A stretch of 57,335 bases of DNA from an uncultured Chromatiaceae bacterium. Its GTDB lineage: Bacteria; Pseudomonadota; Gammaproteobacteria; JAADHS01. The stretch's first letter is position 1. The number at the start of each line of letters is the position of its first letter. The stretch spans positions 1 through 57,335 of the forward strand of contig CALZJI010000002.1 in assembly GCA_945787615.1 (NCBI GenBank), written 5' to 3'. This document shows, piece by piece, positions 2,023-21,517 of the stretch. The translations under genes and the position numbers were made by a program. The notes under the pieces were generated by a model. The model ran no database searches, was not told the DNA's origin, and worked only from the letters and a program-made list of their open reading frames with translations.

Positions 2023-5000
2023 CTAATTGGTGTTATCAAAGGCTGAGTCCCGATTTCTCCTCTTCTTTCCTGTATCCGTCTCTGGCGTCGGCGCGGAATC
2101 ATCAGTCTTCTTACGCGCATTGCCGGCAGACAATAGATCCACAAAAGCGCTGAGACGCTTTGCCAACCATCCCCCTTTTTGCCGCTTAATAAGCTTTTGA
2201 AGTTCCAACGCCGCTCGTTCGTGCGTGATGCGTTGGTTCGCTAAGTCTTTATAGATGCGATCAGCAAATTTTCGCCGCTTTACCGCATCACCGGCGTCCA
2301 GAAAGCCTTCGATGGCCGTTGCCAGCACGGTTATAAATCCCTGTCGTGCTCCGCTACGGGTTTTCGCCCGTGTTTGCTCCATGGCGGATTTTAGATTCGA
2401 TTCGATTATTCGCAATTCGGCTTGAAAGCTCTCCTTTTGTGCAAATAGGGCATTTTTGACGACGTCGATCGTCTCGCTGACGTACTCTTCACATAAGAAT
2501 CCGTATTCCCGATAATTTGCCAACGCTCGCAGGCCCTCCTGGGCTCGGCGCGTATCGCCCCGGGCACCTTTTTTTAACGTGTTTATAATCTTGTCGGAGG
2601 CTCGACGCTGATCTTGATCGGTTTGGCCGAGTCCTGCTCGAAGATCCTGGCACGCGTCATAGCAGGCCTCCCAAGCTTGCCAACGATAAACGAAGTCTAA
2701 TCCAGTACCTTTAATATTTTGCATTCCCATCATGCGGTTATGAAAACCGGGCGGCGTTATTTCGCATATCTTATTAACGATTTCATCACCGCTGAGATAA
2801 GGGTCGCTAATAATGATTAGTTTGCGCTCGAACCATCGCCAAAGCTGCTCGCGGAAACCCTGATTGAGCTTAGAGCGATCCTCCTCCGTCGCCAAAGACA
2901 CTTGTTTTGACAACTCGCAGTACTCGCTATATGCATTGAATCCCTCCTTATAATAACTAACGATTTCCTCTTTATGGGTGAGTCGAAGTCGTTCGAATTC
3001 GTGTTCAACCGATTCCGGTGTGTGCCAGAGTTCTAAAACCCTAGTGAGCGCCGCTCTATCAAGTTGATCGGTCAGCATAGCCTCCAAACGGCCCTTGACA
3101 TGCTGCTCCTTAAACGGAACGCGGAATCGCCAAGCCCAATCGGCCAATAGTTCCTCGGCATCATGGTCCTCCGCGGGTTGCGCGTTTGGCCACAATGTTA
3201 GATCATGAACGAAACGCTCCCAGGCATTGCGGATATAGTTAACAAGCCCGTCCATGTTCGTCCCGATTAGGAAGTGGCGGTCGGCGCTTAAATCATTGAC
3301 GAGAATATTGGCGAACACCTGAGAGCGAGCGATTCGATCAGCTCGGTTATTGACAAGGGTTGTAAGCCACGTTCCAGGGTTTTTTTCGTAATCATGGTCT
3401 GCGAACCCCATCCTTTGCCAATTGTTTAGGCAGCCAAAGCGTTCGTTGGCGGACATGCCGTTTATGAACTCCAAACGACGCCCCCGTAAGGTCGCGACCG
3501 GGTACGCTTTTAACACCCCCAAGTCGAGCACGACACGGTCGGCCATTTCTTTTAGCGCGAAATCGGAGCTGACGCCGAGTTCATCGGCGAGGGTGAGGAC
3601 CAATGCGATGTTGTACGGGTGCTCCTCATAGGGAAAACGTGCCAATATATCCGGGCAAAGAAGCCCGGCCTCCAACCAACCGACCGACCGCGTGCGTGTT
3701 CCTCTGTTTTCGGCGGCTGTTACTAGAATGGGTAGCATCTGCTCTTCCGTGGTCAATAGCACTGACGATTTTGGGATAAAATTCGTCATCACTTCGGGGA
3801 TATTGATACCCGCGGGGCCTTGCAAGTCTTCATGGTCAGGATAAGTGTTGGTTATCGTCGCGATATCATCCCGCACCCACTCGTCTTGTAACACGGAGAC
3901 AAAACTCGGCGTTAGGGCCATACACTCCCATAGAAATACCTCGGACTGTAGCCGGTCGGCAAGCCGCATAATGGCCGCCTGTTCCCAAATCGTTGCCTTG
4001 TCATAGGGCCGGAATAGGAACATTTCGCGAAGTTTGCCATAAGGGGGCGCGTAGAGAAACATGGCTTCGCAGCCCGTGGTTTTTGATACGACGCTGTAGC
4101 CCAATGCGTTCATAAGGGCCGCCTTCAATCGTTCCGTTCCCGATTTTCCCCGCGTGCCCCAGCCACCTAATACCAAGGGTAGACGGTTTCTAACGCGGCG
4201 AATAGCGCGATTGAAGTAAAGATGTTTGCCGACGAAAAGAGCGGTGATTGCCGTGAGAAATACGGCGAGTTGACTAAGGCTGTTTTCGTAAACGGATACG
4301 AAGTAACTTTCCATTCTCGCCCAGAGGTCTGTTTCCGACCAAGGTATTGCTACGGGGAAGAACCGTTGTACCGTTGTATCGACGTTGGGTAGACCCTCTC
4401 CACCGCGAGTATACGGTCGGTGAGCCACTTCTATCCCCAAACGACGTAGTTCGCGTAAGTAAGCGTTAGGTTGGGTTTGATCACCTTCGTGCCAGTTTCG
4501 CAGCTGCGCGTAATAGGAAAAGCGCCGAGTTAACGCAGTACGTGCGACAAATCGTTTGATGAGGGAGCGAGGAGGAACAATCTCAGTAATCCCTTCACTG
4601 GTATAGCAGCGTACCGGCGTTGCGGTGATGCCCTGGTCTAGGCTTGAAATGATCTCGTCAAGTAGCGGTAAATACGGCCGCCACCCTTGCTCACTTGCCA
4701 TAAACAACGGTTCGCCGGGAACTCGGGTTTCGGCCAATTCAGCCATAATGGCGGACGGGGCGTGAACGGTGCCATGGAAAATGCGGCCGGTTGTATGGCG
4801 AAATCCCTGACGCTTGTCGGTGGCGCCATTGCGCATTTCATGCCACAATCGCCAACTCCGAAAGCCAAACGCATGGCCTCTTTTTAATTTTGATTCGAAA
4901 ATTCCGTGCGAGAGTTCCAAGCCGTAATCCGCTTGGGCTATCAACGATAACACGCGCCCTAACGTTTCTTCGCTATGTTGCTTGAGTAAAGCCTTTCGCA

Positions 5001-21517: not shown

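Follow-up and report, generated by a model that had tools for sequence, protein, structure and literature searches.

A conserved seven-gene cluster that is probably a route for making and exporting a polyamide polymer in double-membraned bacteria

The synthesis of poly-gamma-glutamate (PGA) is understood almost wholly from the PgsBCA and CapBCA systems of Gram-positive bacteria, and we know of no account of how such a polymer passes the periplasm and outer membrane of a double-membraned cell. A 57,335-nucleotide (nt) stretch of contig CALZJI010000002.1 from an uncultured Chromatiaceae bacterium (assembly GCA_945787615.1; hereafter the window) carries a cluster of seven genes, G1 to G7 (Table 1), through which certain double-membraned bacteria probably produce a polyamide polymer and carry it out of the cell. 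The polymerised amino acid is most likely glutamate, joined by gamma-amide bonds. On balance, we favour a reading in which the seven genes encode one envelope-spanning machine, an amino acid being polymerised at the inner membrane and the chain passed through the outer membrane. The cassette offers a concrete, testable answer to polyglutamate export in double-membraned cells. A first-pass annotation, made from the sequence without database searches, knew of no system with this architecture; we likewise found no published description of the cluster in the searchable literature, the coverage of which is incomplete and thin for subscription journals, so that a prior description is possible.

The classical polymerisation machinery is recognisable in two of the seven proteins, each much larger than its Bacillus counterpart, as the first-pass annotation had proposed. 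Residues 716-1057 of G7 match the PgsB model TIGR04012 (NCBIfam, E 5.5e-58). Moreover, CapB of B. anthracis pXO2, which has been studied by experiment, aligns with G7 at 27% identity over 348 amino acids (aa; blastp, E 8e-33), and a profile of the G7 family matches CapB at 99.7% in hhalign (E 7e-26). The CapB alignment begins at the G7 membrane helix and retains the GxRGKS P-loop and the KTTG, ECMA, DHxD and NxRxDR motifs; judged by eye, the final GVGNIHG of CapB appears to correspond to GMQNIKG at about residue 1225 of G7. The helix itself (aa 711-729, positions 4213-4269) is the sole hydrophobic one in the protein and lies at the place of the PgsB N-terminal anchor. G7 is accordingly annotated as a predicted PgsB/CapB-type ATP-dependent amide ligase, its core apparently intact and anchored by the canonical PgsB helix. 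Its homologues, of which at least 221 are full length (~1400 aa), align along the whole length and are named 'hypothetical', 'HEAT repeat' or, automatically, 'PgsB/CapB' in databases. The core holds an insert of ~170 aa and is followed by a C-terminal extension of ~210 aa. A HEAT region in the N-terminal part matches PF13646 just under the cut-off (E 1.3e-5), and the family profile matches alphaRep/HEAT-repeat proteins in the PDB (E 3.9e-11); these repeats were the only informative matches to the profile, and a PDB search with the G7 sequence gave no informative homologues. The N-terminal ~700 aa, a conserved domain of alpha-solenoid type that contains the HEAT repeats and has no signal peptide, precede the membrane helix, and a cytoplasmic location for this domain is likelier than a periplasmic one.

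The putative partner of the ligase is G3, in which a pair of PgsC/CapC modules (aa 1-195 and aa 196-375) precedes two further domains, D1 (aa 376-700) and D2 (aa 701-1082). The protein matches PF14102 (CapC) in two stretches (E 2.1e-41, 141.5 bits against a cut-off of 27). Module 1 shares 31% identity with B. anthracis CapC (blastp, E 5e-10; hhalign 96.4%), and module 2 is a duplicate that has diverged (E 0.006 to CapC, E 4.5e-4 to module 1). This tandem arrangement hints that PgsC works as a dimer. A PDB sequence search with G3 returned no informative homologues. The first-pass annotation, whose interpretation was largely right overall, had overlooked the nature of the C-terminal 700 aa of G3. 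In hhalign comparisons both D1 (98.5%, E 1.9e-15) and D2 (96.6%, E 6.2e-10) are related to G5, the 297-aa protein encoded two genes downstream, and to each other (99.6%, E 1.5e-24). Histidine positions of G5 are occupied by A490 and R554 in D1 and by R782 and S853 in D2; the putative catalytic residues are missing from these fused copies only and are kept in G5. Judging from these substitutions, D1 and D2 would be two tandem inactive paralogues of G5.

The seven open reading frames (ORFs) lie on the minus strand between positions 2023 and 21517 and overlap at every junction. Both the ORF listing and direct reading of the sequence agree on this, and all coordinates and junctions given in the first-pass annotation were confirmed. 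ATGA overlaps join G1 to G2 (18812-18809), G3 to G4 (15190-15187) and G5 to G6 (11836-11833). The G2/G3 overlap is 49 nt (GTG 18435 / stop 18387), the G4/G5 overlap 11 nt (ATGACGCTTAG; ATG 12726 / TAG 12716) and the G6/G7 overlap 8 nt (GTGACTAA; 6399 / 6392). The internal ATG starts at 18812 (G2) and 12726 (G5), and the GTG start of G3, agree with the N-termini of homologues. Upstream, 490 nt lie between the cluster and divergently oriented genes on the plus strand. Each ORF has homologues and the order is kept in other genomes, which shows that the seven are real genes and not chance ORFs.

A gene-neighbourhood survey had been set beforehand as a refutation test, and it revealed strong co-occurrence of the genes across genomes. 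The conservation scan, which used one genome per species, found a G3 relative encoded in 235 species genomes. Eighty loci were fetched, and gene order was counted only where the contig flank was long enough. The next gene in order was found on the same strand in 63/66 loci for G4, 54/59 for G5, 49/50 for G6 and 39/40 for G7, and metagenome contigs have the same gene order. The fetched loci come from Gamma-, Beta- and Zetaproteobacteria, Magnetococcales, Desulfobacterota, Nitrospirota, Verrucomicrobiota, Planctomycetota and a metagenome-assembled genome (MAG) of Campylobacteraceae. Among the carriers are lucinid-clam symbionts (Thiodiazotropha), nitrifiers, iron oxidisers, methanotrophs, the wastewater organisms Accumulibacter and Competibacter, and Legionella. 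Some carriers are available in culture, among them Legionella impletisoli, L. yabuuchiae, L. londiniensis (ATCC 49505), Desulfobacter latus (AcRS2) and Aromatoleum evansii. The cluster is a widely conserved seven-gene unit. These counts bear directly on the notion that the adjacency is fortuitous, with G4 to G6 as unrelated envelope proteins placed by chance between a PgsC-like and a PgsB-like gene. Nothing favours it beyond the want of annotated families for G4 to G6. Against it stand the order and strand kept in nearly all sufficiently flanked loci of several phyla, the overlapping junctions and the paralogy of G5 to the domains fused to G3, and we regard it as effectively refuted.

Table 1. 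Coordinates of the seven genes and of the domains assigned within them
Feature	Position in window	Strand	Description or basis
G1, 902 aa	18809..21517	-	TM, CHASE2, GAF-like block, degenerate histidine-kinase-like C-terminus
G2, 141-aa stand-alone receiver (CheY-like)	18387..18812	-	counted from ATG 18812; full ORF 18387-18887
G3, 1082 aa	15187..18435	-	tandem PgsC/CapC modules, then G5-like domains D1 and D2
G3 membrane region, ~12 hydrophobic segments (6+6)	17311..18435	-	hydropathy
G3 D1 and D2, predicted inactive G5 paralogues	15190..17310	-	hhalign, lost His
G4, 824 aa	12716..15190	-	signal-anchor helix, then beta-sandwich chain; predicted periplasmic
G5, 297 aa	11833..12726	-	counted from ATG 12726; full ORF 11833-12780
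G6, 1814 aa	6392..11836	-	signal peptide, periplasmic part, C-terminal predicted outer-membrane barrel
G6 aa 1496-1774, predicted 14-stranded outer-membrane beta-barrel	6515..7351	-	AlphaFold2 and Foldseek
G7, 1458 aa	2023..6399	-	~700-aa N-domain, helix, PgsB/CapB core, C-terminal extension
G7 aa ~260-390, HEAT-like repeats	5230..5622	-	PF13646 and family profile
G7 aa 707-1057, membrane helix and ATP-dependent amide-ligase core	3229..4281	-	TIGR04012

The remaining parts of the classical systems were not detected. CapA gave no blastp match at E<1 in the seven proteins, nor was there a Pfam or NCBIfam match, in line with the earlier remark that a PgsA/CapA-like gene is lacking. A tblastn search of the whole window and 83 related loci with CapA, CapD, CapE and PghP gave no match at E<=0.01, and no PgsE/CapE, CapD or PgdS was found in the cassette by blastp or tblastn, although for CapE this is weak evidence because a 47-aa protein is hard to detect. 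Polymerisation in Bacillus is attributed to PgsB and PgsC, and transport to PgsA and PgsE (PMC5751247). Neither of the latter two was detected here, and the transport half of the classical system is therefore absent.

What the cassette has in addition is a set of proteins, G4, G5 and G6, on which export signals are predicted. The first-pass annotation had noted that two of these are large, with a barrel-like end to the larger, and structural models agree for that barrel; its proposal to search with Foldseek gave a clear answer for G6 and weak matches alone for G4. G4 belongs to no Pfam or NCBIfam family. Its AlphaFold2 model (mean predicted local distance difference test, pLDDT, 76.4) has a helix at residues 2-41 followed by ~50 strands in several sandwich domains, and Foldseek returned weak, multi-domain, jelly-roll-type matches to reelin repeats, Cry toxin domains and BcsB. 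The match to BcsB (9fmt_E) is weak (E 2.1e-4, probability 0.82, TM-score ~0.1), and since the similarity stays at the jelly-roll level G4 was rejected as a BcsB homologue. A relationship of G4 to the modules of G6 is marginal (hhalign probability 53-58%). We read G4, from its model, as an inner-membrane-anchored periplasmic beta-sandwich array, the likeness to BcsB being one of analogy.

The G6 protein of the window matches no Pfam family, and a PDB search with the G6 family profile gave no informative homologues. Inserted domains are found in its homologues, OmpA in 4/13 (E to 4.6e-21) and SPOR in 1/13; both bind peptidoglycan, which places G6 in the periplasm. A beta-sandwich is repeated within the protein (aa 172-312 against aa 930-1068, hhalign 97.4%, E 1e-11), and the periplasmic part also holds a helical region. 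The AlphaFold2 model of aa 1165-1814 (mean pLDDT 76) consists of a helical hairpin, beta-sandwiches, a disordered linker and then a barrel of 14 long strands with pLDDT mostly ~85-95; like that of G4, it was built on a shallow alignment (12 sequences for G6, 12-13 for the two) and has a predicted TM-score (pTM) of ~0.5. The best Foldseek match of the barrel in the PDB is the 14-stranded porin OmpG (2iwv_A, E 2.7e-8, target-normalised TM-score 0.58-0.69), and further matches are to general porins, FapF (E ~3e-6) and AlgE. Six loci contain a split G6, namely Legionella L074, L076 and L077 and also L038, L045 and L049. Here an ORF of ~1100 aa is followed by a separate downstream part, the two spanning about 16500-22000 of each locus. 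The split falls in a poorly conserved linker equivalent to aa ~1100-1170 of the window protein, and the downstream part holds the C-terminal sandwich and the barrel, an arrangement consistent with a protein built of two modules, one periplasmic and the other the barrel. A conserved tail of ~40 aa (GxGRGxRDFRPGExxFxxLRxR) was also observed after the last barrel strand (aa 1775-1814, positions 6395-6514). Such a tail is unusual, outer-membrane barrels normally ending at their last strand; it could be a plug or latch.

The same inserts in G6 homologues raise the question of whether the chain leaves the cell. The polyamide could be made but retained, either in the periplasm or fixed to peptidoglycan or the outer membrane, with G6 as an anchor and not a pore, and serve as an envelope polyanion, for example in cation or metal buffering. 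The polyglutamate of B. anthracis is wall-anchored. Among the carriers of the cassette are iron, sulfur, ammonia and methane oxidisers, sulfate reducers and magnetotactic bacteria, which would suit such a role, as would the protection against zinc and copper that PGA is reported to give B. subtilis (PMC9045300). However, the G6 barrel is closest to the open 14-stranded pore OmpG and also resembles the exporters AlgE and FapF, and the cassette has no CapD-type transpeptidase. We consider retention unlikely, though deserving of real weight.

G5 is the candidate for a polymer-cleaving enzyme. Within the family alignment H120, D124, H191 and E269 are invariant (55/55 sequences) and H165 is found in 38/55. 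This is a large family (1275 representative clusters at E<=1e-3), and its profile retrieved neither PghP or PghL nor anything else informative from the PDB. Its relation to the PGA hydrolase PghP lies at the level of motifs. G5 matches PF05908 at E 0.096-0.18, under the 22-bit cut-off, and just 2/55 family members match this model (best E 0.0044). An hhalign comparison with a single PghP sequence was not significant, and one with an 8-sequence PghP family taken from phage genomes gave a probability of 2.3% (E 0.02); membership of PF05908 was rejected on these grounds. The sub-threshold alignment is nevertheless collinear over 159 columns and pairs H120 of G5 with H40 of PghP, D124 with E45, H165 with H78, H191 with H103 and E269 with E165. 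Alanine mutants of these five PghP residues are reported to be impaired in gamma-PGA degradation (PMC6506827). G5 is ~90 aa longer than PghP and has a signal peptide. It had been described as a PghP-like lipoprotein, a description of which the motif-level likeness survives but neither a significant PF05908 match nor the lipoprotein does. The AIAPC of the window protein departs from the canonical lipobox, and lipobox-like motifs are present in 4/55 family members, most having ordinary signal peptides, so that a lipoprotein family was rejected. G5 is best described as a predicted periplasmic protein with a signal peptide, and as a candidate metal-dependent hydrolase with PghP-like motifs that stands outside the PghP family.

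A possible hydrolase alongside an outer-membrane barrel might also be expected if the cassette served the uptake and breakdown of external polyglutamate, the barrel importing, G5 degrading and the PgsB-like protein being otherwise employed. This is very improbable. The ligase core is intact and paired with PgsC, the cassette encodes neither a TonB-dependent receptor nor an ABC importer nor a set of peptidases, and the fused hydrolase-like copies are without the aligned metal-binding residues.

What the ligase makes is a separate matter. The profile searches for PgsB and PgsC gave significant matches, but both proteins fall under the NCBIfam equivalog cut-offs, G7 with 196.5 bits against 222.7 for TIGR04012 and G3 with 76.1 against 96.45 for TIGR04011. 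They therefore belong to a divergent subfamily for which the same product is not to be assumed, and given these scores and the ~27-31% identity to CapB/CapC the substrate or linkage could differ. On this evidence we take G7 and G3 to be true homologues of the polyglutamate ligase and its membrane partner, in a distinct subfamily, as far as sequence comparison can tell. An alternative is that the ligase makes no free PGA at all, exporting instead a polyamide of another amino acid or of mixed composition, or chains built on a glycan, lipid or protein acceptor. Besides the scores, this would accord with the family-wide conservation of the extra domains of G7 (aa 1-700, the insert at ~1050-1220 and the tail at 1250-1458), of which aa 500-700, the insert and the tail are conserved in 30/30 aligned homologues. 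It would also accord with G5, which has Asp at the position of PghP Glu45 and no significant PF05908 match. On the other side, in NCBIfam and the plasmid collection every best match is a PgsB or CapB, the cassette is devoid of genes for a glycosyltransferase, flippase or carrier, and every characterised PgsB/PgsC pair known to us makes gamma-polyglutamate. A different product is, in our judgement, rather improbable.

G1 and G2 were said to lead the operon as a CHASE2 sensor and a CheY-like regulator, and both domains are present (PF05226 at aa 56-286 of G1, E 1.1e-13; PF00072 in G2, E 1.6e-26). A classical kinase with an obligate receiver is a different matter. Hydropathy places an N-terminal transmembrane segment, the periplasmic CHASE2 domain and a transmembrane cluster (aa ~276-339) in G1, and the best-conserved cytoplasmic part is a GAF-like block at aa ~370-500. 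HATPase_c (E 0.0012) and GAF_3 (E 0.0065) match below their cut-offs. Across 47 aligned sequences the H-box region contains no conserved His, and Asp replaces the Asn of the N-box. The kinase-like C-terminus looks degenerate and is missing from the Legionella copies, which end at ~675 aa. G1 lies upstream of G3 in 57/62 loci; G2 is beside G3 in 29/73 only. With the conserved phospho-acceptor His absent and the receiver optional, a classical two-component system was rejected as a family feature. G1 is a near-constant member of the cluster and, instead of being a classical kinase, may act as a regulatory subunit. A gene with a GGDEF domain (25393-27039) is close to the conserved cassette but outside it.

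Several points weigh against an exporter that spans the envelope. Both the identity of the polymer (PGA or another polyamide) and its export are inferred. To the sub-cut-off ligase scores, the weak BcsB match of G4, the non-significant PghP match of G5 and the shallow alignments and modest pTM of the G4 and G6 models must be added the topology of the two membrane proteins. Because a 700-aa domain without a signal peptide precedes the G7 helix, the topology of PgsB is not simply transferable to it. In G3, K/R counts over 73 homologues average 14.4 on one side of the membrane and 6.4 on the side with both termini, a count made under a hand-defined 12-TM (transmembrane) model whose segment 8 is weakly hydrophobic; under this model D1 and D2 are predicted to be periplasmic, like G5. 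No TPR Pfam match was found in G6 or its 12 homologues, so that no TPR scaffold was detected. No PilZ, GGDEF or EAL domain was found in the seven proteins (Pfam/NCBIfam), nor was a receptor for cyclic di-GMP (c-di-GMP) detected. Finally, one variant cassette has no G6. This locus (L095:1-12437, JGI 3300086678, 67% GC) consists of a receiver (REC) gene, G3, a short G4 of 530 aa, G5 and G7, with G1 divergently oriented. Should its host prove to have no outer membrane, the variant would instead support G6 as the outer-membrane part.

Other departures from the common order were observed. G3, with its double PgsC and D1/D2, stands without adjacent G4 to G7 in five loci (L014, L018, L034, L035 and L039), which belong to Parabeggiatoa, Thiomargarita and Thiotrichaceae; in these large sulfur bacteria the cassette is therefore dispersed or reduced. 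In a Nitrospirota MAG (L094:3503-6603 and 11205-11888) G6 and G7 are set apart by ~3.5 kb of small genes, including two that are antitoxin-like, and a gene for a receiver-PilZ (c-di-GMP-binding) protein lies just downstream on the other strand. Downstream of the variant without G6 is a 347-aa protein that by eye is possibly Sel1-like.

Around the cassette in the window, no riboswitch or known RNA was found in the 5' region of the cluster or elsewhere, and scans for promoters and terminators at the cassette ends gave nothing exceeding shuffled expectation. When related loci were compared, no conserved gene was found downstream of G7. Signalling genes flank the cassette (22009-27039 on the plus strand, 567-1259 on the minus strand), encoding an NMT1-like binding protein, a HAMP-PAS histidine kinase, an Hpt-receiver-GGDEF diguanylate cyclase and an OmpR-type regulator; in other genomes none of these is kept as a neighbour of the cassette. 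An ORF of 165 aa without a Pfam family lies between G7 and the OmpR-type regulator (1416-1913, plus strand). Further away, two DUF1631 genes are adjacent on the minus strand (31311-32300 and 32580-35039), one product being full length (819 aa) and the other, of 329 aa, covering the C-terminal third of the model only. In a 954-aa protein (40062-42926, minus strand) a spermidine-synthase-like domain is joined to TPR repeats at the C-terminus; next to it is a 1066-aa DUF7948/Calx-beta/beta-propeller protein (36825-40025, plus strand).

Taken together, these data suggest how an envelope-spanning machine might work. G7 and G3 would form the synthase and translocon, as PgsB and PgsC do in Bacillus. 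D1 and D2 of G3, in the periplasm, would replace PgsA/CapA and receive or guide the nascent chain, G4 and the periplasmic part of G6 (which may be wall-binding in some homologues) would provide a conduit to the barrel, and the barrel would let the chain out. G5, as the active paralogue, would use a metal to hydrolyse the polymer and so trim it or set it free, in parallel with BcsZ, AlgL, PgaB and PelA of the polysaccharide systems. G1, with its CHASE2, transmembrane, GAF and degenerate kinase parts, would act as sensor or regulatory subunit, with G2 as an optional receiver. We infer, as the simplest reading of the paralogy, one active enzyme (G5) and two inactive modules that bind the chain and, fused to the translocon, take the place of PgsA. 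We give about even chances to the fuller proposition that this is the first synthase-dependent, envelope-spanning polyamide secretion system, in which a PgsB/PgsC-type ligase-translocon is combined with undescribed periplasmic proteins, a dedicated 14-stranded pore and a hydrolase-like family used both as an enzyme (G5) and as two inactive modules replacing PgsA, and which has spread horizontally via chemolithotrophs, sulfate reducers and some Legionella. The cluster gives a context to three uncharacterised families, namely G4, the domain shared by G5, D1 and D2, and G6, together with a hypothesis for the replacement of PgsA. An anionic, metal-binding capsule or matrix in the carriers would matter for their ecology and for biotechnology.

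The cassette resembles PgsBCA(E) and CapBCA(D,E) of B. subtilis and B. anthracis in its amide-ligase core, with the same helix and motifs, in its PgsC/CapC modules, and in having the ligase and PgsC genes in one operon. It differs in that the ligase protein measures 1458 aa against ~393, through a HEAT-containing 700-aa N-domain, an insert and a tail, and in that PgsC is tandem-duplicated and fused to two periplasmic-type domains of ~330-380 aa. PgsA/CapA, which Bacillus requires for synthesis and export, is absent from the cassette, and there are three extra exported proteins, one with a predicted outer-membrane barrel, in diderm hosts. With PghP and PghL (PF05908, zinc carboxypeptidase-like) G5 shares residues that are collinear with the PghP set in a sub-threshold alignment, but it forms a separate large family that has Asp for Glu45 and also occurs as predicted inactive copies fused within G3. 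FapF, which exports an unfolded polypeptide, is likewise a small-to-medium barrel closing a dedicated operon, and the substrate here is plausibly also a linear, amide-linked chain. Unlike FapF, however, the G6 barrel is better matched by OmpG and is fused to a periplasmic region of ~1500 aa, and its substrate would be a non-ribosomal homopolyamide.

The layout is reminiscent of the Bcs, Pga, Alg and Pel systems, with a predicted inner-membrane polymerase and translocon, an anchored periplasmic beta-sandwich protein, a large putative periplasmic scaffold plus barrel, a candidate periplasmic polymer-cleaving enzyme (G5) and an associated sensor (G1). At the sequence level the accessory proteins have no homologue among the components of Bcs, Pga, Alg or Pel. 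The barrels of BcsC, PgaA and AlgE have 16-18 strands, whereas that of G6 is modelled with 14; moreover, a TPR match and a PilZ/GGDEF-type receptor were not found, and the polymerase would be an amide ligase, there being no glycosyltransferase domain in the seven proteins. By analogy, the cassette would work like the synthase-dependent polysaccharide systems while falling outside them as defined by a glycosyltransferase. This suggests that the layout known from cellulose, alginate, poly-N-acetylglucosamine (PNAG) and Pel, of synthase, conduit, barrel and trimming enzyme, has also evolved around an amide ligase.

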